Below, piece by piece: positions 2,901 to 36,900 of a DNA stretch of 64,000 nucleotides. Each line of letters starts with the position of its first letter. Positions within the stretch are counted from its first letter, which is position 1. A program made the position numbers and the translations under genes. Below the pieces are notes generated by a model, which had not been told where the DNA came from, made no database searches, and saw only the letters and a program-made list of their open reading frames with translations. The DNA comes from Mytilus edulis. Taxonomy: Eukaryota. The DNA lies in the NCBI RefSeq assembly GCF_963676685.1, contig NC_092353.1, positions 26,619,690 through 26,683,689 of the forward strand, read 5' to 3'.

Positions 2901-4069
2901 ACATTTTATATCTGATCCAGATTTTAATCCCTTAAGACTTAGTCACAAAAGGCAATCATGGTAATCAGATGGCCATTCCAATGATAATGACATTAGATTA
3001 AAAAATGATTTTAAACTTTACTTTGATATGAATTTGATGTTTGGATGTAAACTGTTAAATTGGCAGTGCATCATTCAAAGTGTGCACATCAGCGTGCTCA
3101 TATCTGCCATAGACTCTTTATTTGTGCAAAATGACATGTCAAAAACTTTATTTTCGTTTTTAAAATCACGTTTTTCTAAAACCGGATGTTGACTTGACAA
3201 TGGTAAAACATGGACCATAAACGGATACGTAAAATCCGTGTACGTTTTACAAAGCATGGTCGAGTGAAGAAGCTCTTTCCACGTTATTTCTTCAACAAAA
3301 TACTTGAAATGAACGTTTAGATACAGGTATCAATGATAATTTTAGCATTTTGAAGAAATAAAGGATGCATAATTAAATTTCCCACCTTTGCACATGCGCA
3401 CACGTGTTCTAGTTCATTCAACGTAGTTCTGACGATTTTTCATTTAAACCTTTTAAAATTTTTCATCAAATAATGTAGATAAACTAATTTCTTATAATTT
3501 TAATCTTTTGGACTAAATCAATGAGCTACAAACCGCTGAAATGTAAGAAAATAATTGTGAATAGACCGATCAATTTATACGATGTCCGGTACTGAACATA
3601 GTTTACCTGTCACCTGAACAGGTAGATATCACCTGTCCAACAACTAATTAGCCTTGATTAAAATTAGAAAGTATTGAAGTAGGGGTTGTTTTGATAGTTA
3701 TTAATCATCATGTCACTTTTATGACCGGAAATGTGTGGATGTTGAAGGCAAAAGGTTGGGTCAAAAAGATCGTGAATTATGTTAAAATGACCGAAAAAGT
3801 CTTGAAAACTAAAATGTATATGACCGTTTCATGCTTTGCCCAGCCGGACTTTTAACGGACATTATACAAATGTCCGGAATATATGACCGTTTTGAAGCCC
3901 TGCCTGGCATATGGTTCAACTGACCTTGACCTCATTTTCATGATTCATGTTAAGTTTATGTGACAGTCGTAATAAAGCTTTATATTTAGGAGTATCAACA
4001 TAATATTAATGATTAGTAAAGAAGACGAGACATTTCAGTGTGTGCACTCTTGTTGATTATTGGCCAAGT

Positions 4070-5460
4070 TTTCAAGTTGGTCCAAATCGGGGTCCAAAAT
4101 TAAACTTTGTTTGATTTCATCAAAAATTGATTAATTGGGGTTTTTTGATATGCCAAATCTAACTGTGTATGTAGATTCTTAATTTTTGGTCCCGTTTTCA
4201 AATTGGTCTACATTAAAGTCCAAAGGGTCCAAAATTAAACTAAGTTTGATTTTAACAAAAATTGAATTCTTGGGCTTTTTTGATATGCTGAATCTAAACA
4301 TGTACTTAGATTTTTTGTCGAGCCTGCAACTTTTGTTGCAGAAAGCTCGACATAGGGATAGTGATCCGGCGGCGGTGGCGGCGGCGGCTACGGCGGCGGC
4401 GGCGGTGTTAGCTAACTTCTTAAAAGCTTTATATTTTAGAAGGTGGAAGACCTGGATGCTTCATACTTTGTATATAGATGCCTCATGTTACGAAGTTTCC
4501 GTCAGTCACATGTCCAATGTCCTTGACCTCATTTTTATATGGTTCAGTGACCACTTGAAAAAAAAGTTCAAATTTTTTGTAATGTTGAATTCTCTCTTAT
4601 TATAAGTAATAGGATAACTATATTTGATATGTGCGTACCTTGCAAGGTCCTCATGTCTGTCAGATAGTTTTCACTTGACCTCGACCTCATTTCATGGATC
4701 AGTGAACAAGGTTAAGTTTTGGTGGTCAAGTCCATATCTCAGATACTATAAGCAATAGGGCTAGTATATTCAGTGTATGGAAGGACTGTAAGGTGTACAT
4801 GTCCAACTGGCAGGTGTCATCTGACCTTGACCTCATTTTTAGGGTTCGGTGGTTATAGTTAAATTTTTGGTGTTTTGGTCTGTTTTTCTCATACTATATG
4901 CAATAGGTCTACTATATTTGTTGTATGGAACGATTGTAAGGTGTACATGTCTAGCAGGCAGATGTCATGTGACCTTGACCTCATTTTCATGGTTCAGTGG
5001 TCAAAGTTAAATTTTTGTGTTTTGGTCTGTTTTTCTCATACTATATGCAATAGGTCTACTATATTTGTTGTATGGAACGATTGTAAGGTGTACATGTCTA
5101 ACGGGCAGATGTCATGTGACCTTGACCTCATTTTCATGGTTCAGTGGTCAAAGTTCAGTTTTTGAGTTTTGGTCTTTTTATCTAATACTATATGCCATAG
5201 GTCAACTATATTTGGTGTATGGAAATATTTTATGATCTTTATGTCAGTCGCACAGGTTTTATTTAACCGTGACCTCATTTTCACGGTTCATTGCACAGTG
5301 TTAAGTTTTTGTGTTTTGGTCTCTTTATCTTAAACTATAAGTAATAGGTCAACTATATATGTTGTATAAAAGCATTGTTAGCTGTACATGTCTGCCTGGC
5401 ATGGTTCATCTGACCTTGACCTCATTTTCAAGGTTCATTGGTCTATGTTTAGTTATCTTG
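4070..5460. repeat. Segmental duplication partner B, with a (GGC)n expansion at 4370-4410
   Basis: Collinear with 1690-2900. This copy carries an extra 'ggcggcggtggcggcggcggctacggcggcggcggcggtg' tract. Confidence 0.75.
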
Positions 5461-7010: not shown

Positions 7011-7394
7011 AAAATATAAAAATCAGTTGAAAAACCATTACTTATTGGATCGATACAAAGCATTATAAAAATCAAAAATATAACAGTTTCTCAAAAAATG
7101 GTGTTTGCTGTGGAAAAAAGATAAAGACAAATTTAAGAAGTACAAAACACTACATTTATATATCATATCACAAATATTTCCGCCTTTGTATGGTTTCAGA
7201 GGAGATGCACCTCTTTGAAATCAGTCTCTTCCTTTAGTAGTATAGATTTCATACTTCACCTCAAAAACTTGGTTTTCCCTTTAATTATAGGTTTTTAAAG
7301 GGATATATCATTCTTCCAGTTTCATACAACTAAAAGGTATCACGAATGACCTTACTTTATTGTTTATTTCATTGCATCTTTTTGTACTTCACAG

Positions 7395-7478
7395 AATAAC
7401 AGAAATTATATGACAAAAGATGCTAAAATGGCAGCAAAAATGGAAAAGAAATTAAAGATATTGCTTGGAGGTTATCAG
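7395..7478 (+). CDS. CDC5L: CDC5L-like (cell division cycle 5-like), antepenultimate coding exon
   Basis: Acceptor 'ttcacag|' and donor '|gtaatt'. It translates to NNRNYMTKDAKMAAKMEKKLKILLGGYQ. From memory, human CDC5L has ...LEKKLKILLGGYQ at this position. Confidence 0.6.
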
Positions 7479-7767
7479 GTAATTCTTACTGCTTCTACTG
7501 AAAAGATAATATTGATTTAATATCAAGTTTCAAGACGTTTAATTTATTAATCAAATGTAATAAAAGTAATCTTAAAAAAAATAATGAAAATTTGCATGAA
7601 TTTACAAATCACTTAGTTACTCTTCCTTCCAAGTACTTAATATGCAAGCAAATACTTATTTTAAATTTTATGAATCTATTGTCTTAAGATTTAAGCTCAT
7701 ATATCAATATCTGTTACTGTATATATTTGTAAGACTAGGGAATCCATAAAGAACTTTTAATAGATGA

Positions 7768-7965
<198 letters not shown>

Positions 7966-8712
7966 TAAATATAAAAAGATGTGGTATGAGTGCAAGTGAG
8001 ACAACTCTCCATCCAAGTCACAATTAGTAAAAGTAAACCATTGTAGGTCAAAGTACAGTCTTCAACACAGAGCCTTGGCTCACACCGAACAGCAAGCTAT
8101 AAAGGCCCCCAAAAATGACTAGTGTTAAACCATTCAAACAGGAAAACCAACAGTCTATAAAAAAAAAAGAAACACTTATGAAACACATCAACACCAACTT
8201 TACTTAGATATCAAAGAGAAACAATCCACAACTCTGTACATGATATAGCTGTATGAGATGTACTGATATAATGTTATAAGAAGCTAGGATTTATATATCA
8301 GCAGATGATTAAGTGTTTTATCTGTAAAGGCATACATTCTTTCAATATTGCATGAAAACATGTTTCTGTGGATTCATTGTTGCTTGAGATACAAAGAGAT
8401 TTAGGAATGCCAAAAATTAAAAAGGTTCACCTTAGTACAAATTTATTTTAGGCTTATATGCAGACTTTGAAAATTCATAATTTACAAAATATCAAGTGGC
8501 ACAACAAAAGTAAAAAAACTTAAAACTATTTTATAACATTGTTTTAACGTTCCCAAGTATTGCATTATGTTGATTTAATTGATTGTCTTGAAACTTCAAA
8601 ATGTTGTATCAAAAAGACCCCAAAACTATTTCTGGAAGGTGTATCAAAATATTAGCATTGTTCTGTGTTTTAATCTGTCAAATTATTTTATTTGCTTATT
8701 TGTTACTTTCAG

Positions 8713-8817
8713 TCCCTGACAGAAGATGTAAATAGACAACAGGAGAGAGAGAAAGAATTACAGAGAAAATACAGTGAACTCCAATATAAACAAGATATTA
8801 TCCAGTACAACAAATAA
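8713..8817 (+). CDS. CDC5L: CDC5L-like terminal exon, ending with a TAA stop
   Basis: Acceptor 'tttcag|'. Translation [34 protein letters not shown] resembles human [34 protein letters not shown] (from memory). Confidence 0.6.
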   Translation, partial: [34 protein letters not shown]

Positions 8818-11220
8818 TATGGACTTGTGTTTACAAAATTATAACACAGATTGAACTTATATTTGTCAGAATTTTGTACAGTTTAATATCAAATGTTATC
8901 AGAATTTTAACTCATTAAAAATATAAACAGAGCCATAACAAAAGATTAAATCTAAAATTTAAAGAAAAATGCTAAGATTTTTTTATTACATAGCTTTACT
9001 GGCTTAGTTCTCATAATTTTTAACAAGTTTGTGTAATTTTGTTATAAAACATTACTGTTAGGACTATTGCCTTCAGACAAGTATTTTACATAGAAAAGTT
9101 ATGCATTATACTTATACATGTATTTATTATACTGTATTTCTAACTTTCTTGTTATGAATGTGAATTTCTGGTATCATTTAAATAAAATACGAAAAATTTC
9201 AGGGAGAAATATGAAGTGTACTAAAAATCTGAGTTCTTGAAGTGTCAGTATGAATTTTTTTACTGATCAAAATTTTAGATGTTTGTTACAATTTCTGTCC
9301 AAATCACTCAAAGGTAGTTAGTATTGCAATACAATGATAGGATTAAATTGATGAAAATGTTATTTTGACTGTCAGAAAAATTACAAACAGTGTCTGTTCA
9401 AATGTCCCACAAGACAAAATTATTTTTGAGAACTCTGTAAAAATATATAATTTATTAGTCCCATGACACTTCATCAATATTTGTCTTCATGGTGGCTTTG
9501 TAGTCCTAGTAAAACAAAATAGTTTTGAAATGAAAAAACAAATAAATAATCATTAATGTAAAAACTCATGATTCATATTTCTATGTTAGAAAAGAATGGA
9601 GTGAGAAGCTCTTAGGGGAGAAAGAAGTTATGTTATATATGTATTTCATATTGTCATTCCATCAATAAAACATCTGACCAGTATTTGTTTTCATGTATTT
9701 GGTTCTCCAAAGACATCTATTTAGAGTACAAATGTATATTCAAATGAGATTTATCATTTATCTCATATCAGTTATTTAAAATGCAATGTACCATGTCGTT
9801 TCAGTTTATTGCTACCTTATTGATTTCTTCAAAGTCTATTGTATCTATTTAAGATTCCATTGCTGCATTTCAAGTGTACCGGTATGTCTGACCTTGAATT
9901 CAGATATCATAATGGATAGAATCAACTTGCCTTGTATACTTTGCATCATACTAGTCTATCAGTTTGTGTTACTTGTATCAAAACGATGTAAATGTGTCCT
10001 CCTTGCATTTTTCAAAAGTTGAAGTATTTCGATGGTCTATTAGTAGCTTACTTTTCACAAGTGTTTGTTCTAGATGGTTTTATCCTTGGCTTTGTCACAG
10101 TAGAGATTTAAGAATTGTTAATTGCTGCTTCTCTGTCAAGCACACTGCATCTTGGAGTTAGAATAAATGTGTGTGCATATAATTGTGACATCATGGACAT
10201 AGATACCTGTGGAGTATTACCTTTTGGTCAGTCATAAATCATCAAACCTTATTTCCAAAGTGATTGTTGAAGCATAGTTAGAAATCATATATGAATACAT
10301 GTAACAGGTTCTGTAAGTTGTCTATTCATGCAAACAGATTTACATTTTTGAAAAGATTATAAATCATAAAAACTTACCTCCTTTGAAAAAACTATCTACT
10401 GCTATTTATTTTAGTTTACATCAAATTTCATATCTGGAGAATTGTATCCTTTAAAAGCATCCAAGTAGCAGATGTTTTTTGCTATTTAGGGAAGGTCAGT
10501 ATTTAGGTAAAAGTATGCTGTACACCATCAGGTCTAAAACTGTGGTGCTACAAGATAGTACCAGCTCTAACAGAATATTTATGAAGTGGTCACCATTTTG
10601 GCTTAAACAAAATAAAAAACAGAAAATTATGAATATTGAAACCATTGATGCCATGCAGAACAACAAATTAATTTTATCCTGGCCATTAAAATGTCTTGTA
10701 AGGAGGTTTTTTTTTAATTTAAAAAAAGGGGGGGGTCCTAGCTGTCAGTCAGAATATAAGATGATTTAGACAAAAAAAGAGTTTTGTGATCAAGGTAATT
10801 TTAATATGTCTTTAAGAAAAAGTCTCAATGGTTTTCTGATAAATGTCTCATAGAAAACAAGATGTATTCAGGGTCAATCTTTTTTTTAAATGATCAAGTT
10901 GCCACTGTTTCATTTTCTATTTAAAATGATATTCCTGTATAACTTCATAAATGAGAACTTGTTGCAGATTTGAAAATGGTATCAGGTGTTATTTGTATTG
11001 TTTACGGTTATCAAGGCAAAACAGAGAGACAATATAAATACTTGACATGAATCAACACAAACTTCGTGTTACTCAATATAACATAGATTAACACTTCACC
11101 TTAGATGATTTTTTTTTAATGGGCAAAGTTAGACAACTCTACTTTTGTAAACAAATAAAAATTAAATTTTTAGAATTAAAATTTAGTTTTGTAAATTAAA
11201 TACTCACCTTCATAAATTTA

Positions 11221-11332
11221 GATATCAGTCCACTCGCTGCATTATTCAACCGGAAACCAGCCAGAAAAAGAAACCATGACCCCGTGACAACCTCTCCCAC
11301 CTGACACCTGTGTGTCCTAAACCTTCATCATT
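11221..11332. repeat. DIRS inverted terminal repeat, 3'-proximal copy
   Basis: 'gatatcagtccactcgctgcattattcaaccggaaaccagccag...cctaaaccttcatcatt' is the reverse complement of 16450-16562. Confidence 0.85.
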
Positions 11333-11495
11333 TATTCCTTAAAATGCTAGGCACTAAAAGGGGGATGAAGGGGAGGAGGGAGGGACCTCTGATTTATGAA
11401 GGTGAGTATTTAATTTACAAAACTAAATTTTAATTCTAAAAATTTAATTTTTATTACATTAAATACCTCACCTTCATAAATTTAGATAACAGAAT

Positions 11496-12600
11496 TTAAC
11501 GAAGGGCTGCATCCCCATCACTAGGAGGAGGAAAAACAACCTGTTGAGCAGCAACCAAAGGCCCTAAAGAATAGAGGTTGTCACAATGAAGAGGCATGGA
11601 CCGTAAATAATGGTTATAAAAGGCACTATCAGACCTCCAAAAACCAGCTGACATGATTTCCGACATAGAGGAGGAATTAAAAATGTTCCAAGAAGAGGCT
11701 AAGGCTCTTACTTCATGTGCTTTAACTTGATGTTTAACTAAAACTTCAGAAGAAGCAGATTTATAGGCCAAAATGACAGTATTGCAAATCCAAGTAGAAA
11801 TGGTTTTGGCAGAAATGTCAGAAATTCCTTTTTTAATAGGAATAAACAACCTAGAAGAACCAGCAGATCTTAATTTCGCTGAAGAAGCTAGGTAAACAAG
11901 CAAGGCTCTCACTGGACACAAAACCTGATTATCCGATGTGGGAGGTAAAGCAGGAATAGTAATAATACCAGAACCTTTATCAGGTAACTGGTTCTTTGCT
12001 AAAAAAGATGGATCAGTGAGAAGAGTAACTGAAGACTTATCAGATGCAAAGCGGAGACAAGACTCAGAAATTGACAGAGCATGAATCTCACTCCTTCTGC
12101 GACCAGTAGCCAAAGCTATCAGAAAACAACATTTATAAGATAAAAATTTGAAGGAGGCTGAATGTAAAGGTTCAAAAGGTGAAAACTGAAGAACCTTCAA
12201 AACTAAACCTAAGTCCCAAGAAGGAACCAAACGCCTTTGACGAGGTCTATTAAGGCAAAAGTTTTTTATCAATAATGACAAAAACTCATTATCCCCAAAA
12301 TCAGAGCCTCCTGAAAGTGATATTGTTCTGGCTATGGCAGATCTATATCCCTTTATAGTAGAAGGAGAATAACCTTTCTCCTCAAAAAGGTAAAGGAAGA
12401 AATCCGCTAACTGTTGTACAGTGACAGAGAGTGGATTAATCTGCTTCGACAGACACCAAGTACAGAAGATAGACCATTTGGAGTCATAAACTGCTCCTGT
12501 AGATTGTCTGACTGATCCTGAGATACGCTTGGTTGCTCCCTCAGAAAAGCCTCCCTTTCTGAGGGAATCCCTGACAACAACCAAGCGTGCAGATGGAGAT
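11496..12600 (-). CDS. DIRS ORF3, tyrosine recombinase domain; this is the C-terminal part of the 971-aa ORF 11496..14411
   Basis: YR boxes: LIALATGRRRSEIHAL (Arg box), HQVKAHEVRALASSW (HxxR) and GFWRSDSAFYNHYLR (catalytic Tyr). Upstream of about 12600 the same frame is S/G-rich low-complexity read-through antisense to pol, so the true start is uncertain. Confidence 0.7.
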
Positions 12601-14563
12601 TCTCCAGACCTTGATGCAGTTTTCTTCCTTTGAATTGAGACAGTAGATCCTCTCTTAGAGGCAAACAAAGGGGCTTCGCACAACACAGAAGTAGTAGTTC
12701 TGGGAACCAAGACTGTCTTGACCAAGCCGGAGCAATAAGAATGGTCTTGCAAAGATCCCTCTGAATCTTGTGCAAGATCTTTGGAAGAAGACGAAAAGGA
12801 GGGAACATGTAACTGAACATTCCCTTCCAAGATAGGGTCATAGCATCTACTGCCCAAGCTTTCTCGTCTGGAATGGGAGAAACGTAAGTCTCCAATTTGT
12901 GATTCAGACTGGTGGCAAAAAGATCTATATGAGGACGATCCCAACGAAGAATGATCTCCTGAAACACTGATGGATGAATTTCCCATTCTGTGTTCACTGG
13001 AACACGGGAACGGGAGAGAGCATCCGCCAGAAGATTTTGACTGCCTGGAACATGTCTCACTGACAGAAAAATATTGAGACTGTGACACAGAAGAAGAATT
13101 TCCTTGCTCAGATGATACAGAGAAAAGGAATGGGTCCCTCCTTGATTCTGAAGATAAGCCACTACTGTGGAGTTGTCCGTGGCAACCAGTAGTGACTGAC
13201 CCTGAATCACAGCCTGAAACTGACGGAGAGAAAGAAACACAGCTCTCATCTCTAGAAGATTGATGTGTTCCTCCAACTGAGCACCTGACCAAAGGCCTGA
13301 TGCTGTCCTGCCCTCCAGATAAGCTCCCCAACCCATCAGACTCGCATCTGTGAACAAAGTTAGGCTGGGGTCTGGAGGATCCAACAAAACTCCCTTCCGA
13401 AGATGTTTTTCCTGAAGCCACCATTGAAGATGAGGTAACAACCGAGGAAGGATGGGAACAGGTGCCTCCCACAACTGAGAAATTGGATGCCAAAACTCCA
13501 TCAGATACCACTGGATTGGACGAATGTGTAGACGTCCTAGTGGAATGACGTCCATGATCGAAATCAAGAAACCCACCAGCTGAAGCAATTGACGAGCTGG
13601 GACAGATGAAAACTGAGTCAGAGCATTGACTAACTGACATACCTTGACTACCTTCTCTTCTGGAGGAAGCACTAGACCCAAATCTGTCCGAAAATGTTCT
13701 CCCAGGAAATTGAAACTCTGACTGGGAATTATCTCTGATTTTTCCCATGAAATCAAAAAACCCAGTCTCAGGAGTAAAAGGATAGACAAATTGGTGTGTT
13801 CCTCCAAAAGAGAACGGCAATGATTCTTGATGAGAGAATCGTCTAGGTAGGAATGAATGAGAACTGCCCGAGTATGAAGATACGACACCACCGTCTGAAA
13901 AATCCTGGTAAAAACTAGGGGTGCAATAGCCAGGCCAAAAGGCATAGCCTTGAAACTGTAAACCTTGTCTGCCCACACCAGTCTCAGGAAATGACGAAAC
14001 TTGTGAGAAATAGGGATGTGAAAATAGGCGTCCATCAAATCTAGAGAGGTTGTCCAAGTTCCTAAATGAATTGTCGACCTGATAGACCTGTTGGTCTCCA
14101 TTTTGAAATGTGGGACCACCAGATACTGATTGAGAACAGAAAGATCTAGAACCGGTCTCATTTTCCCGTTCTTCTTGGGTACCAAGAACAGCCGGGAATA
14201 AAACCCTAGATGAAAAGGATTTACCTCCTCCAATACACCCTTCTGAATCAGAATGTTCACTTCGTTTTGTAACAACTGATTCTTTTGAGAATCCTTTGTC
14301 ACTGACAGATTGATTGGAACAGGAGAAAGAGGAGGCTGTTCCAGAAACTGAAGTTCCAATCCCCTCCGTAAAATCGAAAGTACCCACTTGTCTGATGTTA
14401 TCAGAGCCCATTGATCTAGAAAGTGGGACAGCCTGCCCCCCACTGGAAGATGAGGAAGAGGAGAAGTATAATTTTCCTCTTCCAGTGGGGAACGATTCAA
14501 CGGAGGGGACAACACATCACTTACCCTGCTTCTTTCCCTTAACCACTTTAGCTTTCTTCCCAC
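12407..14563 (-). CDS. DIRS ORF2, pol: reverse transcriptase, RNase H and a conserved DIRS/Ngaro C-terminal extension
   Basis: RT motifs: LVPKKNGKMRPVLDLSVLN, LDLMDAYFHIPI, FKAMPFGLAIAP and the YxDD-like HSYLDDSLI. RNase H motifs: FTDASLMGWGAY, TDNSTVVAYLQNQGGT and HVPGSQNLLADALSR. Then ...IDLFATSLNHKL...YMFPPFRLL...ILIAPAWSRQSWF. Confidence 0.85.
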   Translation of the reverse strand: MGRKLKWLRERSRVSDVLSPPLNRSPLEEENYTSPLPHLPVGGRLSHFLDQWALITSDKWVLSILRRGLELQFLEQPPLSPVPINLSVTKDSQKNQLLQNEVNILIQKGVLEEVNPFHLGFYSRLFLVPKKNGKMRPVLDLSVLNQYLVVPHFKMETNRSIRSTIHLGTWTTSLDLMDAYFHIPISHKFRHFLRLVWADKVYSFKAMPFGLAIAPLVFTRIFQTVVSYLHTRAVLIHSYLDDSLIKNHCRSLLEEHTNLSILLLLRLGFLISWEKSEIIPSQSFNFLGEHFRTDLGLVLPPEEKVVKVCQLVNALTQFSSVPARQLLQLVGFLISIMDVIPLGRLHIRPIQWYLMEFWHPISQLWEAPVPILPRLLPHLQWWLQEKHLRKGVLLDPPDPSLTLFTDASLMGWGAYLEGRTASGLWSGAQLEEHINLLEMRAVFLSLRQFQAVIQGQSLLVATDNSTVVAYLQNQGGTHSFSLYHLSKEILLLCHSLNIFLSVRHVPGSQNLLADALSRSRVPVNTEWEIHPSVFQEIILRWDRPHIDLFATSLNHKLETYVSPIPDEKAWAVDAMTLSWKGMFSYMFPPFRLLPKILHKIQRDLCKTILIAPAWSRQSWFPELLLLCCAKPLCLPLREDLLSQFKGRKLHQGLENLHLHAWLLSGIPSEREAFLREQPSVSQDQSDNLQEQFMTPNGLSSVLGVCRSRLIHSLSLYNS

Positions 14564-16277
14564 TTGAATAGTTGGGACGAGAAAAAGCTGGCCTCTTCGT
14601 AGACTGTGAAGAAGAAGAAGAGGTAGAAGCCTTGGGTTGATGAGAAGACGAAGAAGAAGAAGGATTATTCATCTGAGTAGTTTTGACAAATCTTTTCCCA
14701 TCAGTGACCTTCACATCCACCTTGACTACAGGAGGGGCCTTATTCACCTCCTCCTGTAACTGCTCTAAGGAAACAGAGAACAACTTGTCCTTAGACAAAG
14801 GAGAACTGACAAGTCTCTGCTGAAGAGCTTCAGAGACAGTTGATTTTACAAGAATCTCCTGTCTCTTAGCAAGAGTAAAGTTGGCCACAGTACCAAGAAG
14901 AAGGAATTGAGACATTCCAAGACTCTTGTCTACCTGAAGCAGCATAGACCTCAAATCTGAAAATTCCTCCCCTTTGTCCTTTAACAGAGACCCAGCTGCT
15001 GACAAAAAGTGCTCAGCTGTCTCAAGAACAAAAGTCAAACACCTCAGATTATTCTCTGACTTGACATAAGAAGCTTGAGAAAGTCTGAGGCCATCCAAAG
15101 GTTTCGAACCAAGCAAACTAGAAAAAGCCCGGTCACAAGCAGGAGCCGACATACCCAAGGAAGATCCATGGATCTCAAAGTCCTTAGATCTACATCTCCC
15201 TGGATAAGAGGCAGGTCCGAAACCAGAGAACTTACTACCACCAGTTTTGCTAGTGTTAGCAAGATTCTCAGCCAGAGAAGAGTTTACAAAAGACAAAGCA
15301 GTTGTAAAGTGCCCAGACTCTGGAAAAGAATAATACCCCTTAGACTCTGGCTTGACTATACCTGAGCAAGCCATGAAATCTGAAGGAGTAGAAGAAACCC
15401 TAGGTGGAGACGACATGGGCATATCCGACATATTCCTACGAATAGAATAGACCAGACTTCTAAGGCATTCTGGGTTGCCTGAAGCAGGATCCTTAGGAGC
15501 GAAAGCATCTCCCTCTGTGCTTACTACACTATCAACATCAGAAATACCATCTTGGTCCTCCAAAAAGTTACCTTCCTGACTTCTAGGGGCCAAAGAAACT
15601 GAGTCGTCTTCCAACAACTGTCTAGGAGGTCTGGGAGGATCCTGTGCAGGATCCTGAGACAGACCCCTAGACTCCATAAGATCAAGCCTGTTACCAAATT
15701 CCAAAAACTTAGCATTAACAGTAGCTTGTATCTTGTGAATGGAGGTGGTAAGACTCCTCATCTCATCCTTAAAGGAGGATGACTCTGAAGAGGATCTACC
15801 ACCAAACCCCTGACCAGACCAAACTGATTGAGCCGAATAAGGATCAAAAGGCTGGGGATAAGGCGGCAAGTTGGGCATTCCCATAGGCATGGGAGGGTAT
15901 GCAAAATTCATGGGCCACCTAGTCCGAGAAAAGGGGTCACTCCTGATGCCAGCTGGTAGTGTCTCCTGCCTGCTTGTCGTGCAAGCCACAGGAGACGTTG
16001 GTATCTCTGCAGGCCTAGTTACGGTATGTGATACCCTGCTAGGCCTAGATAACCTCAACTGACTAGCACCAGGAGTGAAAGGCAAAGTCCTGACAGGAAC
16101 AGGTTCCGAGTCCTGTTCCAGACCGACACCAGAAACACCTGGAATAAACTCCAAACTTCTATCCCAAAATTCATCTGAATGGGTGGCCGAACGCCAAGGG
16201 GACAACAAATTACCATTGGATGTGTGAATTTGACTGTCACTTACCTCTTGGGTACCTGAAGCTGGAATTTTATCCAT
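14517..16277 (-). CDS. DIRS ORF1, gag-like, 586 aa
   Basis: First long ORF after the 5' ITR. It has a basic, S-rich C-terminus (...KKAKVVKGKKQGK) and no zinc knuckle. It overlaps the pol ORF by 47 nt in another frame, as in DIRS elements. Confidence 0.6.
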   Translation of the reverse strand: MDKIPASGTQEVSDSQIHTSNGNLLSPWRSATHSDEFWDRSLEFIPGVSGVGLEQDSEPVPVRTLPFTPGASQLRLSRPSRVSHTVTRPAEIPTSPVACTTSRQETLPAGIRSDPFSRTRWPMNFAYPPMPMGMPNLPPYPQPFDPYSAQSVWSGQGFGGRSSSESSSFKDEMRSLTTSIHKIQATVNAKFLEFGNRLDLMESRGLSQDPAQDPPRPPRQLLEDDSVSLAPRSQEGNFLEDQDGISDVDSVVSTEGDAFAPKDPASGNPECLRSLVYSIRRNMSDMPMSSPPRVSSTPSDFMACSGIVKPESKGYYSFPESGHFTTALSFVNSSLAENLANTSKTGGSKFSGFGPASYPGRCRSKDFEIHGSSLGMSAPACDRAFSSLLGSKPLDGLRLSQASYVKSENNLRCLTFVLETAEHFLSAAGSLLKDKGEEFSDLRSMLLQVDKSLGMSQFLLLGTVANFTLAKRQEILVKSTVSEALQQRLVSSPLSKDKLFSVSLEQLQEEVNKAPPVVKVDVKVTDGKRFVKTTQMNNPSSSSSSHQPKASTSSSSSQSTKRPAFSRPNYSSGKKAKVVKGKKQGK

Positions 16278-16449
16278 AATATTCAGATAAAATTAATATA
16301 AAATTATCCAAATATACTATAATTATAAACAAAAATATCAATATAAATTACTAAATATATAAATTATCAACTTGTTAAACTGTTTGTGAAAAAATAAGCT
16401 TTTCCTCCTCCACAAAAAAACGTGCAGCATGCGTTGTAGAACCGGAAAA

Positions 16450-16603
16450 AATGATGAAGGTTTAGGACACACAGGTGTCAGGTGGGAGAGGTTGTCACGG
16501 GGTCATGGTTTCTTTTTCTGGCTGGTTTCCGGTTGAATAATGCAGCGAGTGGACTGATATCTAAATTTATGAAGGTGAGGTATTTAATGTAATAAAAACA
16601 GGA
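16450..16603. repeat. DIRS inverted terminal repeat, 5'-proximal copy, including the outer 'taaatttatgaaggtgaggtatttaatgtaataaaaacagg' segment
   Basis: Reverse complement of 11221-11332. The outer 40 bp is complementary to 11451-11490 and to 11191-11220. Confidence 0.85.
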
Positions 16604-16659
16604 AATTCCCAAACGACCGGAATATATGTTTACTCAGCATTAGCAGTGTTACAGTTAGG

Positions 16660-16719
16660 ATGTCTAAAAACAATGTTGTGGGTTTGAAGCTTTACCAGTT
16701 TGTTCATGTACTTGATGTG
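16660..16719 (+). CDS. MVP: Major vault protein, putative exon 1: MSKNNVVGLKLYQFVHVLDV
   Basis: It is the first in-frame ATG after a stop at 16591, with donor '|gtaagt' at 16720. It joins exon 2 in phase 0 to give ...YQFVHVLDV|TTNITRIEIGPQT, which aligns with MVP ...YHYIHVLDQ|NSNVSRVEVGPKT. The IRIPPY motif is poorly conserved, so the call is uncertain. Confidence 0.4.
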
Positions 16720-17589
16720 GTAAGTAAAATTGGTTTATAATCTATTGTCAAAAAGTATTTTTATTTTAAATTGAAATTTACAGCCATTTGACATTTCTGT
16801 TTCACTTTCATATGTCGATGACTTTCATCTGCCTGAGGCGATCAAGTTTTGATATGTAGATTTAAATCGTTGCTTTATTTTTTAATGCCTACCTGAAGAT
16901 GAAAAAGGAATAAATCAACTCCTTTGAGTAATAATTTTTAAACAGACGAATTGAACGAAATGAAGAAATGAAGGTACATTGCACAATACCATGCAATGTT
17001 TTAAACATGGAAAAAGAGACATAAATGTAGATTTATTATTAATCAAGATAAAGAATAAAATGTTTGTCTCATTTTAAGGATTTCTTTGTTCTGTCATTTA
17101 CATCTTAATACTTTTTGAGTGAAGAAAATTGAACCCTTCTAAATTATCTGGTGCAGATCCAGGGAAGCTAATTAGGTGGACATAACTCCTTACAGATTAT
17201 AGAGTTATATATAGACCTAAATTTTCCAGTTTCAGTTACCAGTTCATATATTTTTGTACCTAGAAAAAACATCTTAATGCAACCCCTTTGCTTTTCCTTT
17301 AAATTTCAGGGTGATTTATTTGTTTGAACAGATTATAACCTGTCCTGGTTTGATAAACAAACATTGACTTACAATACACCTACATAATGAATGTGTATAG
17401 ATTGACCAAGAACCAATAAAAGGGATGGGTTTTTGCTCTCACAACATGTATCTGTAATAGCAGGCATTTATTTTAAGGGGATATTTATAGAAAAGAACAA
17501 ATAATGTTTCCAATATGGGGCTCCAGTTCAGAGGTGGGATTTTTTTTAGCTCACCTGGCCTAAAAGGCCATGTGAGCTTTTCTCATCAC

Positions 17590-17609: not shown

Positions 17610-17646
<37 letters not shown>

Positions 17647-17650
17647 TGTC
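17590..17650. repeat. (GTC)n microsatellite
   Basis: 'cgtcgtcgtcgacgtcgtcgtcgtcgtcgtcgtcgtcgtcgtcgtctgtcgtcg'. Shorter GTC runs lie near 1030-1050 and 19435-19445. Confidence 0.9.
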
Positions 17651-20580
17651 GTCGTTAACAATTTTTCAAACATCTTCTCCTCTGAAACTACTGAATGGAT
17701 TTGAATGAAACTTAACATGATTGTTCCTTAGTATATCCTGCACAAAATGTGCGCTTCGATTTTTGATCCGTCAAAAAACATGGCCGCCGTTACTTAAAAT
17801 AGAACATAGGGGTCAAATGCAGTTTTTGGCTTATATCTCAAAAACGAAAGCATTTAGAGCAAATCTGACATGGGGTAAAAATGTTCATTAGGTCAAGATC
17901 TATCAGCCCTGAAATTTTCAGATGAATCAAACAAACCATTGTTGGGTTGCTGCCACTTAATTGGTAATTTTAAGGAAATTTTGCAGTTTTTGGTCATTAT
18001 CTTGAATATTATTATAGATAAAGATAAACTGTAAACAGCAAAAAAGATCAGCAAAGTAAGATCTACAAATAAGTTAATATGACCAAAATTGTCAATTGAC
18101 CCCTTAAGGGGTTATTGTCCTTTAATGACAATTTTTCACAATTTGTTCATCATATTTGCTAACTTTAAAAAATCTTCTCCTCTGAAACTACTGAATGGAT
18201 TTGGTTAAAACTTAGCATGATTGTTCCTTAGATTATCCTGCACAAAGTGTGTGCTTTGATTTTTGATCCGTCAAAAAACATGGCCGCCGTTACTTAAAAT
18301 AGAACATAGGGGTCAAATGCAGTTTTTGGCTTATATCTCAAAAACGAAAGCATTTAGAGCAAATCTGACATGGGGGTAAAAATGTTCATTAGGTCAACAT
18401 CTATCAGCCCTGAAATTTTCAGATGAATCAAACAACCCATTGTTGGGTTGCTGCCACTTAATTGGTAATTTTAAGGAAATTTTGCAGTTTTTGGTCATTA
18501 TCTTGAATATTATTATAGATAAAGATAAACTGTAAACAGCAAAAATGATCAGCAAAGTAAGATCTACAAATAAGTTAATTTGACCAAAATTGTCAATTGA
18601 CCCCTTAAGGGGTTATTGTCCTTTAATGACAATTTTTCACAATTTGTTCATCATATTTGCTAACTTTAAAAAATCTTCTCCTCTGAAACTACTGAATGGA
18701 TTTGGTTAAAACTTAGCATGGTTGTTCCTTAGATTATCCTGCACAAAGTGTGTGCTTTGATTTTTGATCCGTCAAAAAACATGGCCGCCGTTACTTAAAA
18801 TAGAACATAGGGGTCAAATGCAGTTTTTGGCTTATATCTCAAAAACGAAAGCATAAAGAGCAAATCTGACATGGAGTAAAAATGTTCATTAGGTCAATAT
18901 CTATCAGCCCTGAAATTTTCAGATGAATCAAACATCCAAACAGCAAATATGATCAGCAAAGTAAGATCTACAAATAAGTCAATTTGACCAAAATTGTCAA
19001 TTGACCTCTTTAGGAGTTATTGCCCTTTAAAGACTTTTTTCACAATTTGTTCACCGTGTTGACTTACTTTAAAAGATCTTCTCTTATGAAACTGCTGTAT
19101 CAATTTCAGCCAAACTTAGGCTAAATGAGTTTCAGAGTTTCAGAGTATCTAGTATAAATTTTATATTTCATTTCCTTGTATGTCAAGAAACATAGCTCCT
19201 ATGGCTAAAATAGAACATAGGAGAAAATGATTTTTTTTTGCTTTTGAAGAAAATAGGACGATTCAAAGAACATTTAAATAAATTGAAAAGCCAAAATAAT
19301 CATTGATGAGAGATTAAACCAAAAAAATTCAGGTGAGCGATTCAGGCTCTTGAGAGCCTCTTGTTTTAGCTCACCTGGCCCATAGCCTATAGGGCCAAGT
19401 GAGCTTTTCTCATTCATGTCATTACTTGTTGTCCGTCGTCGTCTTTAACTTTTACAAAAATTTTCTCCTCTGAAACTACTGGGCCAAATTTAACCAAACT
19501 AAGCCACAATCATCACTAGGGTATCTAGTTTACAGAATGTGTCCGGTGACCCTGCCAACCAACCAAGATGGCCGCGTTGGCTAAAAATAGAACAGAGGGG
19601 TAAAATGTAGATTTTGGCTTATATCTCTGAAACCAAAGCATTTAGAGCAAATCTGAGAGGCAGTAAAATTGTTTATATCTGCTCTGAAATTTTCAGATGA
19701 ATAGGACAACCCGCTGTTTGGTTGCTGCCCCAGATTTGGTAATTTTAAGAAAATTTTGCTGTTTTTATACGTTCGCAAAGATTGAGAATTTTTTGGTCGT
19801 ATATTGGTATCAGGTTGACGTTTATCAGGTCAAGATCTATCGGCCCTGAAATTTTCAGATGAATCAGACAATGGGTTGTTGGGTTGCTGCCCCTGAATTG
19901 GTAATTTTAAGGAATTTCTTTGTTTTCGGTTATTATCTAAAAAAAATTATTATAGATAGAGATAAACTATAGGCAGCAATTATGTTCAGCAAAGTAAGAT
20001 CTACAAATAAGTCAACATGATCAAAATGATCAGTTGATCCCTTAAGGAGTTATTGCCCTTAACAGTCATTTTTTACCAATTTTTCATAAATTTTTGTTAT
20101 CTTTTACAAAAATCTTCTCCTCTGAAACTACTGGACCAAATTTAACAAAACTTAGCCAAAATCATAATTAGGGTATCTAGTTTAAAAACTGTGTGCGGTG
20201 ACACGGCCAACCAACAAAGATGGCAGCCATGGCTAAAAATAGAACATAAGGGGTAAAATGTAGATTTTGGCTTATAACTCTGAAACCAAAGCATTTAAAG
20301 CAAATCTTACAAGGGGTGAACTTGTTTATCTAGTAAAAATATCTATCTGCCCGGAAATTTTCAGATGAATTGGACAACTGGTTATTGGGTTGCTGCCTCC
20401 CAATTGGTAATTTTAAAAGAAATTTAGTCGTTTTTGGTTATTATCTTGAATACTATTATAGATAGAGATAAATTGTAAACAGCAATAATGTTCAGCAAAT
20501 TAAGATCTACAAATAAGTCACCATGACCAAAATGGTCAGTTGACCCCTTAAGGAGTTATTGCCCTTTATAGTCATTTTTT
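17650..20580. repeat. Tandem array of ~6 copies of a ~480-520-bp unit (satellite/SINE-like) inside MVP intron 1
   Basis: Recurrent 'aatcttctcctctgaaactactg...atggccgccgttacttaaaatagaacataggggtcaaatgcagtttttggcttatatctc...gttgggttgctgcc...agatctacaaataagt...' at about 17660, 18165, 18670, 19060, 19450 and 20100. Confidence 0.8.
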
Positions 20581-22884
20581 AACATTTTTCATTAATTTGG
20601 TAAATTTTGCAATCTCTGTAAACTAAAGGGCCAAGTTCATTACAGAAAGAGAAAATTGTAAGTAACAAAAATGATCAGTAAAGTATGATCTACAAACACA
20701 TCACCATTACCAAACCACAATTTTGTCATGAATCCATCTGTTTCCTTTGTTTAATATGCACATAAACCAAGGTGAGCGACACAGGCTCTTAAGAGCCTCT
20801 AGTTAACAATTTTCATAAATTTTGTTAATTTTGTAATTTTATTAAAATTTATTCGTTTATGATATGCACATAGACCAAGGTGAGCGACACAGGCTCTTTA
20901 GAGCCTCTAGTTCTAGGAAAAAATTGGTTGATTATATAGGGAATCACTGAAGCTTGACCAGAGCTGGCCCCCTTTTGGGCAGTCAGTGGGCCCCGACTTA
21001 TGAAAATTTCTTGATCCACCACTGCAGTTTGGTATTAAGTTAACCACTTGGTGACACTTTCCCTAATACAAAGTTAACAATAATAAGTTTTAAAAGAAGA
21101 AGAATAGTTAGGCCTTGAGATATCTTAAATTGGCACTAGCTACGAGAAAAATCAAATAAGATTTTGTTTGGTTTAACCTTAAGTCAAATTAAGCAATGAA
21201 ATATCGCTGATGAATTACTATAAATTCAGAAATTATTGCGTGCATTTATTAATGCAATTTTGTCATTTTAGACTTAAATACGATTTTAATTGGTACGATT
21301 TTGAGAACAATCCTGTTTATAGATATAGGAAGATGTGGTATGAGTGCCAATGAGACAACCCTCCATCCAAATAACAATTTAAAAAAAGTAAACCATTATA
21401 GGTCAATGTACAGCCTTCAACACGGAGCCTTGGCTCACACTGAACAACAAGCTATAAAGGGCCCCAAAATTACTAGTGTAAAACCATTCAAACGGGGAAA
21501 ACCGACGGTCTAATCTATATAAATGGACGAGAAACGAGAAACATGTATAAATTACATAAACAGACGACACCTACTGTACATCAGATTCCTGACTTAGAAC
21601 AGGTGCAAATATTTGCAGCGGGATTAAACGTTTTAATGGTACCAAACATTCTCGCTTTTTCTGAAACAATTACATAACATCACAACATAGAAAAACATAC
21701 GATAAAATATCAATTGGCAGGCTCAACTCAATCAAAAAACGTAAATTAATACACTATGAACGAATAAATTTGATCTGCGATATCTGAATGTAAATGCACA
21801 GTTAATAAAATATTAGGGATAAACATTCAGGGCCAAAAAGCAAACAAATAAGTCCAAACAAAGCCATAGCAAGACACCACTGTGAAATATTTAACCCTAC
21901 GAAAATTATCACATTTGAAAAAAAAACCGGTTTTATTAATACAGGTAAATCATGAAGTTTATACAAATGTAGTGAAAATTAGAAGATATTCCAAATAATC
22001 AAATAATCAAAGCTGGTATATAGACAAGTTCCATATTAATATAAAATAACAAAAAGGCATTATATAAACAGTATAATTCATATTAAATATTTCACAACAA
22101 GAGTTTGAATTATTGCGTTTACAACTCTGATTTGTACTTAATATTTTGGTACAGAAATAATACAATATTCCTTGTTTGAAAATCATAACTTTAAGAGATT
22201 TGGAATAGAAAAACTTTCAAAATGCTGAAATGTAACGGAAGTAACCAAAAATCTGTAGTACCTAAATTTCAAGTACAAAAACATTTTATTATAAAATTTA
22301 ATCTTTTTTGTAGCTAAATGTGCCTACTTGTCACTAATAAGTGATAGACAAATTTGTTTTAGGTGTAATACAATTTGTACCACCAAATCATGGTACGTCA
22401 CATCCGGTTGTATACGAAAGTAGGTCTAAAAAAATATTCCCTTGAATTTGACAGTTAGTTGTAAGTAATTTATCCTACATTTTATTGCAGTAAAAATATT
22501 TCTGTGTCATAAACATATGTCTTTGGTATTTCAAAACACCATTATTTTTTATTTGGTATTTCTATAGAAAACCTTGAGGTTACATGGTGACTAAACCTTG
22601 TACACAGATAAAATAAGGGGAGAAATTTGATTGGTTAACTTCCAATGATGGTTATTTTCTTATATGCAATGAAATGTTATGTGAATTTTTTTCTATAGTA
22701 CTGGACAGGATAAAACTTTACTCATGCCAAGTATTTCTTTATTTGAAACAACAAATTCTGCACATTTTTTTGAAAAGTGCAAATTTAACAAAGACTAATA
22801 GGGGAAAATCAATGGTGGTATTACACCTAATTAAGAAGCCAAAGTGACACGATCATTTTAAAATTGTATATACAATATTTTCAG

Positions 22885-23018
22885 ACAACTAATATTACAA
22901 GGATAGAAATAGGTCCACAGACCATTGTATTGAAGACAAATGAAAACTTTGTGGCTGGTCCATTACCTATGATAGTTGTTGCACCAGGATGTTATTGTGT
23001 AGTCCATAATCCTGTCAG
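22885..23018 (+). CDS. MVP: MVP exon 2
   Basis: Acceptor 'ttttcag|', donor 'gtcag|gtatgt'. TTNITRIEIGPQTIVLKTNENFVAGPLPMIVVAPGCYCVVHNPV resembles human [38 protein letters not shown]. Confidence 0.8.
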
Positions 23019-23905
23019 GTATGTATTGTGTAGTCAATAATCCTGTCAGGTATGTATTGTGTAGTCCATAACCCTGTCAGGTATGTATTGTGTAGTCCAT
23101 AACCCTGTCATGTATGTATTGTGTAGTCCATAACCCTGTCAGGTATGTATTGTGTAGTCCATTATCCTGTCAGGTATATATTGTGTAGTCCATAACCCTG
23201 TCAGGTATATATTGTGTAGTCCATAACCCTGTCAGGTATATATTGTGTAGTCCATAATCCTGTCAGGTATGTATTGTGTAGTCCATTACCCTGTCATGTA
23301 TGTATTGTGTAGTCCATAACCCTGTCAGGTATGTATTGTGTAGTCCATTATCCTGTCAGGTATATATTGTGTAGTCCATAACCCTGTCAGGTATATATTG
23401 TGTAGTCCATAACCCTGTCAGGTATATATTGTGTAGTCCATAATCCTGTCAGGTATGTATTGTGTAGTCCATTACCCTGTCAGGTATGTATTGTGTAGTC
23501 CATAACCCTGTCAGGTATGTATTGTGTAGTCCATAACCCTGTCAGGTATGTTTTGTGTAGCACTGTGTTGTGTAGTCCATAACCCTGTCAGGTATGTTTT
23601 GTGTAGCACTGTGTTGTGTAGTCCATAACCCTGTCAGGTATGTATTGTGTAGTCCATTATCCTGTCAGGTATGTATTGTGTAGTCCATAACCCTGTCAGG
23701 TATATATTGTGTAGTCCATAATCCTGTTAGGTATGTATTGTGTAGTCCATTACCCTGTCAGGTATGTATTGTGTAGTCCATAACCCTGACAGGTATGTAT
23801 TGTGTAGTCCATAACCCTGTCAGGTATGTATTGTGTAGCACTGTGTTGTGTAGTCCATAACCCTGTCAGGTATGTATTGTGAAGTCCATAACCCTGTCAG
23901 GTATA
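23000..23905 (+). repeat. 31-bp minisatellite, ~29 copies, derived from the last 27 nt of MVP exon 2 plus its GT donor
   Basis: The unit 'gtatgtattgtgtagtccataaccctgtcag' starts inside exon 2 and every unit carries 'cctgtcag|gtatgt'. There are variant units with 'gtttt' or 'cactgtgttg' inserts. Confidence 0.9.
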
Positions 23906-27262: not shown

Positions 27263-27354
27263 GAAGTGCAAGGAATTGTAAATCCAACAGTTCTTAAAGA
27301 AGGTGAAGCTTTAAGACTGAGAGCTAAACAAGGATTTATGGATAGATATGACAA
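27263..27354 (+). CDS. MVP: MVP exon 5
   Basis: EVQGIVNPTVLKEGEALRLRAKQGFMDRYD resembles human [30 protein letters not shown]. Acceptor 'ttttcag|', donor 'aa|gtaagt'. Confidence 0.85.
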
Positions 27355-27888
27355 GTAAGTTAACAAGTCATGTTCTCTATTGGAGCATATTTCTTAACAA
27401 ATTCTGAGTTTTTATATAAAAAGAGAGAATGTTTTAAATTTTCTTAAATGTTTTTTTTCCTAAAACTTTATAACCAAAAAAATTTGAAAGAATTATTTAT
27501 TTTAAAATATCGGATACACAATGCTGTGAGGATATAAAAGCTTAAACTTATAGACTGAATAAATGATTGTGTCCTTTCATGGGTTTCTGGTTAATGTCGG
27601 GTTCTGAGATACATTGAAAGATATACAGAGAGAAATAGTGCTATCAACTTTTTTAGGCGAACACATATCAAATATTTCTAGAATAATATAAAAAATAAAC
27701 AACAATTTTGTCATAAGGGAGATAAACGGCAAGATTTTGTTTTTGACAAGATATGGCCTCTAACAAAGAAGATATGTACTTTGGGGATACACGTTTGAGA
27801 GTATCCCTAACGATAAAAGCTTTGAAGTTCCTGGTACATTGTGTATTTGGTATATAAAATCCTGATGTTTTTGTTAATTTTGTTACAG

Positions 27889-27958
27889 TGAAAGGGTGAC
27901 AGACGAGCAATGGTTCATCTGTGAACAAGGATCATATTTACCTGATGTATATGAAGAG
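27889..27958 (+). CDS. MVP: MVP exon 6
   Basis: (N)ERVTDEQWFICEQGSYLPDVYEE resembles human [24 protein letters not shown]. Confidence 0.85.
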
Positions 27959-28574
27959 GTTTGTAATATGAATCCAAGCATGTGATTATAATGTTTAGTT
28001 TAAACATATTTTATTTACTCAAAGTAAAATGATTTGGACACAAGTAAGCCATACTTATGAAGTCCGCTCTGAATAACAATAATTTACAATAAAATATTAA
28101 TATGAGCATGCAATATCAAAATAAACCATACTTTACGAGTTTAACAATTGAGAAAAAAAAATGAAACAGAAATAAATGTAAACATTGGAAATGATGATGA
28201 TGATGATAATGATGACATGAATGTATCGTAAATACACTTTTTCTACATACAATATCAAGAAATCTCTCAGACCTTTTGATAAATTTGAATACGTGTTTGA
28301 ATATATTCACATTTGTTCATACAAGATTATAATGTAAAAAATTATGAATTGCAAATTTGATTTTCTTAAAGGAAAAATATTATTAATATGGACTTTTATG
28401 TTGATACTGGTTTAAACTTCGTAGATCTTTCTGTATATTAAGTCATTTATTTCTGCATAACAGAAAATCATTAATTATGGAGCATAACTCATATTATGTT
28501 TATGCAAAATAGTTAATCATTTCAGGGTTGACTGAACAAATACTTATGTCAGTTTCTTATATAAAATGTTTTAG

Positions 28575-36179: not shown

Positions 36180-36900
36180 TATACCATAAAGATTCACACA
36201 GTTTCTATTTATACCAAAAAGGTTCACGCAGTTTCTATTTTACACCAAACAGGTTCACATTCCTTCTCTTTTGCACCATAAAGATTCATACCGTTTCTCT
36301 CTCACACCATAAAGGTTCACACTCTTTCTCTTTTACACCATGAAGGTTCAAACACTTTCTCTTTTACACCATAAAGGTTCACACACTTTCCCTTTTACAC
36401 CATAAAGGTTCACACACTTTCCCTTTTGCACCATAAAGATTCACACAGTTTCTATTTTACACCATAAGGGTTCACACAGTTTCTGTTTTACACCTTGAAG
36501 GTTCTCTCAGATTCTGTTTTACACCATAAAGGTTCACACAGTTTCTCTTTTCCACCATAAAGGTTCACACAGTTTCCCTTTTGCACAATAAAGATTCACA
36601 CAGTTTCTATTTTACACCATAAGGGTTCACACAGTTTCTGTTTTACACCTTGAAGGTTCACACAGATTCTGTTTTACACCATAAAGGTTCACACAGTTTC
36701 TGTTTTACACCATAAAGGTACACATCTTGTCTTTTTTACACCATTAAGGTTCACATTCTTTCTTTTTTACACCGTTATGGTTCACATCCTTTCTCTTTTA
36801 CACATTGAAGGGTCACATTATTTTTCTTTCACACCATAAAGGTTCACACCTTTTCTCTTTTACACTATAAAAGTTTATACCCTTTACAACATCTTTTAAT
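36180..36900. repeat. ~30-bp minisatellite x ~24 ('accataaaggttcacacagtttctcttttac') in MVP intron 17
   Basis: Direct tandem periodicity. Confidence 0.9.

Follow-up and report, generated by a model that had tools for sequence, protein, structure and literature searches.

DIRS1-like elements such as Dictyostelium DIRS-1, Lottia LgDIRS2 and Aplysia AcaDIRS share a gag-like open reading frame (ORF), a pol ORF for reverse transcriptase (RT), RNase H and a methyltransferase-like (MT-like) domain, and a tyrosine recombinase (YR) (PMC3266345). The group is defined by an internal complementary region (ICR), and its integration is modelled as an exchange between a 3-bp circular junction and the same triplet in the genome, an event that makes no target-site duplication (TSD) (PMC3266345, PMC7192593). 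From bivalves, DIRS elements have been reported only as low-copy repeat-library entries (PMC10294476). The present analysis concerns an element of this kind in a 64-kb stretch of Mytilus edulis contig NC_092353.1 (64,000 nucleotides in full, referred to as the window), where it lies between CDC5L and the major vault protein gene, MVP. The element is very probably a structurally complete DIRS1-like tyrosine-recombinase retrotransposon that was inserted recently, is not fixed and was integrated by a recombinase-type exchange. The kind of element is already known, though uncommon, and the copy itself is ordinary; the informative part is the pairing of a filled site with empty ones. As far as the searched literature goes, this is the first characterisation of a DIRS1-like element in Mytilus. 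To our knowledge, few intact and demonstrably young DIRS1-like copies are on record from animals, and the majority of those described are degraded.

The structural hallmarks of DIRS1-like elements that were examined are all present in the window: inverted terminal repeats (ITRs), an ICR with a circular junction, a right extension, RT and RNase H, an MT-like fold and a Cre-like YR (Table 1). The G+C content is about 32% in the flanks and 42–47% within the element (region 10500-17500). With both flanking 8-mers included the element measures 5,445 bp, and the net insertion is 5,437 bp. A reading of the window made from its sequence only had placed the element at 11161-16603; the real span is 11154-16598, the ends of that reading being 5–7 bp off, and CAGGA (16599-16603) belongs to the flank according to the empty sites of three other genomes.

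A repeat search identified an inverted pair of 136 nt (11203-11338 and 16444-16579) that is 99% complementary. Two further inverted pairs join the outer ends to the interior, one of 64 nt that is perfect (11154-11217 and 11392-11455) and one of 45 nt (11448-11492 and 16554-16598) that is 98% reverse complement. Since the region 11392-11492 is complementary to both outer ends, it constitutes the ICR typical of DIRS1-like elements. Its halves overlap on an 8-nt circular junction (TTTTTATT, 11448-11455), and both element ends (11154 and 16598) bear AATAAAAA on the plus strand. The ICR and the 38-nt right extension are features absent from the sequence-only reading, which had described identical ITRs of about 113 bp; the identity of the core was confirmed while the length is 136 nt. 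The lone mismatch in the ITR core is located at its inner edge and is common to all four copies considered below. It is thus a feature of the family, leaving zero post-insertion differences in the core. Its interpretation as a post-insertion mutation was rejected, as all copies carry the same mismatch.

The 136-nt core compares with 141 nt in LgDIRS2, and the right extension of about 38 nt with 46–50 nt in other invertebrate elements (PMC3266345). ITRs with a divergent outer part, a two-part ICR (45 + 64 nt here), NTT-type termini and the lack of a TSD are likewise shared with DIRS1-like elements (PMC3266345). The ICR halves differ in overlapping by 8 nt in the family of this element as opposed to the usual 3-bp circular junction, although the exchange is confined to 3 nt (TTT) here as well.

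As had been proposed, three long ORFs are uninterrupted; they are on the minus strand and without internal stops. All the main components of the sequence-only description were recovered, far above chance expectation. The product of ORF2 matched the Pfam family RVT_1 with E=6e-19 (69 bits against a cut-off of 29.6), with weaker matches to RT_RNaseH and RVT_3 that are below their own cut-offs, and the motifs YLDD, TDAS and TDNS are present. Downstream of RNase H is an MT-like domain for which the nearest fold is the cap-specific adenosine methyltransferase PCIF1. Motif IV of this domain is FPPF, not (D/N/S)PP(Y/F), and the corresponding motif of PCIF1 is NPPF. The domain may be inactive or may act on RNA.

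In an alignment of 26 recombinase homologues, R168, K202, H295, R298, W321 and Y331 never vary, and at least 90% of the sequences keep E171; the R..HxxR..Y triad noted earlier is among these residues. A profile built from this alignment matched Cre at E=3e-4, and the Cre residues H289/R292, W315 and Y324 line up with the HxxR, W and Y of the element. Cre was also the best Foldseek match to the AlphaFold model of the recombinase (E=6e-7), followed by XerA and the Tn1549 integrase. The Pfam match to Phage_integrase reached only E=0.002, which is sub-threshold, as is a SAM-like match. Of the families that the sequence-only reading had named for a profile search, RVT_1 was thus found above its cut-off while the RNase H families and Phage_integrase were not. 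According to the model, the recombinase has the same two-domain fold as Cre of phage P1 and XerA/XerD, and the Cre residues R173/E176/K201/H289/R292/W315/Y324 correspond to R168/E171/K202/H295/R298/W321/Y331 of the element with nearly equal spacing. The two proteins differ in that sequence identity is 14–16%, the YR is part of a retroelement, and the target is a very short homology instead of a 34-bp lox site.

Ngaro, PAT-like and Crypton elements and long terminal repeat (LTR) retrotransposons all encode a tyrosine recombinase and/or an RT, and one of these could in principle have been misread as a DIRS1-like element. The likelihood of this is close to negligible since the terminal repeats are inverted, neither direct nor split-direct. 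The region 10500-17500 contains no long direct repeats of the split kind found in Ngaro and PAT-like elements (A1-B1...A2-B2), the longest direct family being 34 nt with 65–71% identity. Against Ngaro, the element possesses both an ICR and an MT-like domain; the MT-like domain downstream of RNase H is absent from Ngaro and VIPER. Against Crypton, the element encodes an RT, which Cryptons lack. The element does not present the features of an LTR retrotransposon (direct LTRs, DDE integrase, protease, 4–6 bp TSD), and no rve or DDE domain was identified in a Pfam search of its ORFs. The assignment to the DIRS-type YR retrotransposons, already made in the sequence-only reading, is sustained by the RVT_1 match, the YR catalytic residues, the Cre-like predicted fold and the ITR/ICR geometry.

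The orthologous CDC5L-MVP loci of M. galloprovincialis (GCA_965363235.1, L002), M. trossulus (GCA_036588685.2, L003) and M. edulis (GCA_905397895.1, L008) provide the empty site. In all three the element is absent and the window flanks join directly, such that the CDC5L end is about 2.4–2.5 kb from the MVP ATG. Its sequence is ...TTTTGTAAACAAATAAAAACAGGAAATTCC... in both M. edulis and M. trossulus, at the point where the flanks meet. A single AATAAAAA is found at the empty site of the three genomes compared to two in the window, one per junction. Full-length copies were identified elsewhere (L007, 99.4%, and L005, 98.7% identical, M. galloprovincialis; L006, 96.4% identical, M. edulis). Searches with pol and YR returned gene models of M. 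galloprovincialis and M. edulis that are 98–100% identical, which places the host in the M. edulis complex, and at least 12 further gene models with 93–100% identity are on different contigs. Frameshifting indels are present in L005, L006 and L007, some of which may be draft-assembly errors; of the four copies, the window copy alone has all frames intact.

With empty orthologous sites, zero differences in the ITR core and copies elsewhere that are 96–99% identical, the recent activity first suggested by the ITRs is well founded, and the claim of an intact element agrees with the three open frames of the window copy. An old, dead copy would have been indicated by divergent ITRs and a lack of other copies; instead, near-identical copies were found and the ITR core is identical. 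From these comparisons, the insertion appears not to be fixed across the Mytilus edulis species complex, and to be lineage- or individual-specific. Mytilus is known for extensive presence/absence variation. The window copy is probably autonomous, given its sequence, and is a candidate active reference element for Mytilus.

The copy L006 differs from the window copy unevenly. In gag the divergence is 5.0% (10.8% at third positions), compared with 1.8% in pol and YR (about 3.3% at third positions). This pattern suggests recombination between sub-lineages or a different constraint on gag.

Transposable elements are common sites of mis-assembly and the insertion is known from an assembly, not from reads; furthermore, the other three copies were taken from draft assemblies in which single-base indels are numerous. 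The insertion could be a product of mis-assembly, in which a repeat was collapsed or was placed beside MVP as a chimera. This is very improbable since both junctions are base-precise relative to three independent empty sites, they match exactly the geometry predicted by the ICR of the element, and the flanks are colinear on both sides.

The apparent 8-bp repeat at the junctions is central to how the element was integrated, and four insertions were compared. In 4/4 copies, the ICR junction is identical (...TAATGT-AATAAAAA-T(T/C)AAATT...). The window target contained the entire 8-mer AATAAAAA. At L007 the junction 8-mers are ATTTTATT (5') and TTTTGATT (3'), and at L006 they are ATTTTATT (5') and TTTTTGAA (3'). 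As these junctions are hybrids of target and element, the exchange is confined to positions 2-4, TTT on the element strand.

Taken alone, the window resembles a classical TSD from a staggered cut, as made by DDE integrases, because the same 8-mer stands at both of its junctions and occurs once in the empty site. A true duplication is nonetheless highly unlikely. The same 8-mer is encoded between the ICR halves in all four copies, the 8-mers that flank L006 and L007 are non-identical hybrids, the element encodes no DDE integrase according to Pfam, and DIRS1-like elements lack a TSD in the literature (PMC3266345). Because the 8-mer is encoded in the ICR and present once in the empty site, the sequences argue for integration by short homology and not by target-site duplication; the apparent 8-bp TSD would be element-encoded homology.

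Integration may be considered in terms of the established DIRS model, described by Piednoel 2011 (PMC3266345) and Malicki 2020 (PMC7192593) and reportedly also by Cappello 1985 and Poulter & Goodwin 2005. A sub-genomic transcript of the element would be reverse-transcribed, and its ends would be rebuilt on the ICR to form a circle with the junction ...AAATTTAA-TTTTTATT-ACATTAAAT... on the element strand, predicted to read ...AAATTTAATTTTTATTACATTAAAT... as a continuous sequence. The Cre-like recombinase would then cross this junction with a matching genomic T-run, making no true TSD, and the MVP-proximal junction would regenerate the original target sequence. The recombinase integration step has so far been mostly inferred from element ends; the window with its three empty sites offers a base-precise view of a recombinase-mediated retrotransposon integration before and after the event.

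Several points weigh against parts of this account. No similarity between ORF1 and a known Gag family was detected, and the MT-like domain, with FPPF, may be catalytically inactive. The description of the insertion as polymorphic draws on one assembly for each of three taxa, with flank identity of 84–98%, and the insertion itself is seen in assembled DNA. The crossover position is derived from two informative extra copies in draft assemblies with indels.

Table 1. Features of the DIRS1-like element and of the neighbouring genes (window coordinates).
Feature	Position	Strand	Basis or remark
Whole DIRS1-like element	11154..16598	-	Filled versus empty site alignments (L002, L003, L008); ICR complementarity sets both ends
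Left (5') ITR	16444..16598	-	Conserved core 16444-16579; outer part complementary to ICR left half
Right (3') ITR, divergent end and right extension	11154..11338	-	Conserved core 11203-11338; extension ~38 nt (11154-11191)
ICR	11392..11492	-	Repeat search
AATAAAAA at MVP-side junction (element 5' end)	16591..16598	.	Same 8-mer once in empty site
AATAAAAA at CDC5L-side junction (element 3' end)	11154..11161	.	Filled/empty site alignment
ORF1, gag-like by position only, 586 aa	14517..16277	-	Lysine-rich C-terminus; TGA at 14519-14517
pol frame (+1 relative to gag)	12407..14668	-	753 codons stop-to-stop; no ATG before RT domain
pol ORF2, 718 aa	14563..12407	-	ORF list
RT domain	~13698-14182	-	YLDD 13838-13849
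RNase H domain	~13004-13366	-	In pol frame
MT-like domain	12410-13129	-	FPPF at 12794-12805
YR frame (gag frame, reopening right after gag TGA)	11496..14516	-	1,006 codons, ends with recombinase
YR ORF, 971 aa	14411..11496	-	ORF list
Spacer, ~600 codons, serine-rich (23% Ser), overlapping pol	5' part of YR frame	-	Upstream of recombinase
Cre-like recombinase, last 367 residues of 971-aa frame	11499-12599	-	Homologue alignment, profile, predicted fold
YR catalytic residues R, E, K, H	12096-12098, 12087-12089, 11994-11996, 11715-11717	-	Homologue alignment
YR catalytic residues R, W, Y	11706-11708, 11637-11639, 11607-11609	-	Homologue alignment
MVP exon 1	16660..16719	+	ATG 16660; GTAAGT donor at 16720; encodes MSKNNVVGLKLYQFVHVLDV
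Other MVP exons	22882-44932	+	Remaining exons
CDC5L last three coding exons	7350-7517, 7768-7965, 8674-8817	+	Stop-to-stop translations, orthologue annotation
CDC5L TAA stop	8815-8817	+	2,336 bp upstream of element

With respect to ORF1, no Pfam family was matched even at E<=10, apart from a noise match to HNF-1_N, and no zinc knuckle was found; the label of gag is thus given by position alone. The frame is kept as ORF1 in relatives, with 35–52% identity. An exact-match scan of JGI metagenomes with a 33-nt element end returned no match. DIRS pol and YR proteins that are 43–50% identical are deposited under the bacterial metagenome-assembled genomes of Sedimenticola and Candidatus Thiodiazotropha (P0070, P0310, P0349, P0368), most likely because contigs of the bivalve host were mis-binned into symbiont genomes.

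The arrangement of the reading frames provides a second subject. In the window element, gag and the recombinase are in one frame with a single TGA between them, and pol is in the +1 frame. Such long ORF overlaps occur in half of DIRS1-like elements and no mechanism has been offered for them (PMC3266345, PMC9210276). The window element has one, whereas a 2011 survey found none in mollusc elements (PMC3266345). When pol was shuffled synonymously, the YR frame contained 48.5±4.7 stops; one is observed (the gag stop), and 0/20,000 shuffles were as low. From this, the open YR frame appears to be under selection, as chance could not be expected to give such openness. The copies differ from one another mainly at third positions of pol codons, and these correspond to first positions of the spacer (24/8/5); it is the openness that is conserved and not the amino acid sequence of the spacer. 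The spacer was accordingly rejected as a conserved protein, the substitutions being at its first codon positions and its identity to relatives tracking that of pol.

Eighty related elements were collected from metagenome contigs, and 45 have intact pol and YR. The YR frame is at -1 to pol in 44/45 and is open for 576–645 codons upstream of the YR domain. The gag stop could be read in 34 elements, namely 33 of the 45 with enough upstream DNA (27 clusters at 70% pol identity) together with L009, a 75% identical relative. In 34/34, a long gag precedes in the same frame, and the YR frame opens immediately past its stop. TGA accounts for 22 of these stops, TAG for 12 and TAA for none; the base that follows (+4) is G (17 elements), C (14) or T (three) and in no case A. 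TGA-CTN and TAG-GGN are frequent contexts. In the control, the YR-ORF stops of the same elements (32/33 read), 31% are TAA and 31% are followed by A. The first ATG of the YR frame is 100–543 codons past the gag stop in 12/34, and the first ATG of the pol frame is at least 38 codons downstream of the gag stop in 20/34.

In L009 itself, at 4055-4137, the YR domain is in the pol frame right after the pol stop, and the gag frame is open to 4137. A 1-nt indel in the contig is probably responsible, though this could be an alternative arrangement.

The simplest reading of these comparisons is programmed recoding at the gag stop, at a likelihood that approaches but does not exceed even. In such a scheme gag would end at a leaky TGA, a +1 shift close to this stop would give access to pol, and readthrough would lead to the recombinase by way of a spacer of about 600 codons that overprints pol. 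The fuller proposal, put forward tentatively from the same sequences, is that the gag stop is a three-way decision point, with termination giving Gag, a +1 shift giving Gag-Pol and readthrough giving a Gag-spacer-recombinase protein, its spacer kept stop-free across the whole of pol. If true, this would explain the long-noted overlap of DIRS ORFs, and the gag stop would set the ratios of three proteins in an element without its own AUGs for pol and YR. The comparative data thus suggest a translational recoding mechanism that may be tested for the whole clade.

Conventional expression of pol and YR, by their own AUGs, reinitiation or spliced or sub-genomic mRNAs, would make the open frame a functionless overlap, and it is a serious contender even if it falls somewhat short of an even chance. 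An ATG is found 36 codons past the gag stop in the window, about 20 of the 34 relatives have one within 60 codons, the spacer amino acids are not conserved since copies differ at the first position of the alternative frame, and the ORF overlap of DIRS elements has been described without recoding (PMC3266345, PMC9210276). It accounts less readily for the 12 elements that stay open for 100–543 codons before any ATG in the YR frame, for an openness that chance would not give, for the 20 with a distant first pol-frame ATG (pol often having no upstream ATG), and for a gag stop that in no element is TAA or has A after it, in contrast to the YR stop.

Recoding of this kind would have counterparts in the UAG readthrough of murine leukaemia virus (MuLV) and in the +1 frameshifting of Ty1/Ty3 and of the antizyme type. 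The likeness is in a UGA or UAG gag stop with C or G at +4, in downstream enzymatic ORFs without their own AUG and in a pol that is in the +1 frame. Unlike MuLV and Ty1/Ty3, two frames (pol at +1, YR at 0) would be fed from one stop in the element, the readthrough product would cross about 600 overprinted codons, and no conserved stimulatory RNA was found.

About 27 nt past the gag TGA (14437-14489, minus strand), the sequence can pair into a hairpin with a stem of at most about 20 bp, in outline CCCCACUGGAAGAGGA paired with UCCUCUUCCAGUGGGG. One of its pairs is compensatory (A-U, U-A and G-C in three lineages) and the folding z is about -2. As a conserved recoding hairpin it looked plausible in 3–4 close relatives but is neither alignable nor positionally conserved across the 33 elements, in which the spacing from the gag stop to a PVGGRL motif ranges from about 10 to more than 100 nt. 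The restriction of the hairpin 3' of the gag stop to the closest relatives counts against recoding, as does the purely comparative nature of its support, and splicing or non-AUG initiation may be at work instead.

The element is antisense to CDC5L and MVP, as had been proposed, and is head-to-head with MVP such that its 5' end faces that gene. The distance to the MVP ATG is 61 bp and not 57 bp as first given, or 69 bp if the shared 8-mer is counted as target. The element had also been described as the only thing separating CDC5L from MVP, which is wrong given the 2,336 bp more between the CDC5L stop and the element. The product of MVP exon 1 (MSKNNVVGLKLYQFVHVLDV) is identical to the N-terminus of M. 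coruscus MVP. With integration guided by homology, the sequence from -69 to the MVP ATG is unchanged and all DNA farther upstream is displaced by 5.4 kb. Such a natural allele, moving everything beyond -69 of MVP 5.4 kb away, makes a convenient cis-regulatory test. The orthologue annotations of MVP begin at the ATG. The one MVP transcript contig found, from M. coruscus (L001), has an Illumina adapter followed by just 12 nt of 5' untranslated region (5'UTR), and is therefore uninformative on the MVP transcription start site. Disruption of the promoter or 5'UTR, an intronic position and neutrality are each possible effects of the insertion on MVP.

Searches of the 64-kb window with Rfam (gathering thresholds) and ARAGORN gave no matches. 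In the M. edulis contig CAJPWZ010000644.1 (L008), a fused CDC5-MVP gene model (CAG2197308.1, P0245, 1,565 aa) spans both genes, and because of this model CDC5L proteins are found in the MVP 90% protein cluster.

MVP and CDC5L also contain a number of repeats. MVP intron 1 has repeats of about 500 bp (17628-18934) that are 95–96% identical to a block at 27290-28574 of the M. galloprovincialis locus (L002), about 17 kb deeper in MVP than the window counterpart; this points to a mobile or satellite-like unit whose position differs between the two genomes. A 31-nt tandem array (22985-23838, 27.6 copies, 88% matches) starts within MVP exon 2 (22882-23016). It repeats the end of that exon with its GT donor (CAGGTATGT...), and a 5' splice site therefore occurs about 27 times at the start of MVP intron 2. 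Similarly, the end of the MVP exon 39479-39706 recurs with GTAAGT in a tandem array at 39639-40272 (periods of 71–73, 132 and 205 nt), and a tblastn search identified four additional copies of a 23-aa coiled-coil segment at 39711-40254. The introns of CDC5L contain a segmental duplicate of about 1.2 kb (1769-2818 and 4183-5454), with a 147-nt tandem array at the end of each duplicate (4.7 copies in one, 5.3 in the other). Other tandem arrays are located at 1061-1686 (161 nt) and 36183-36875 (31 nt).

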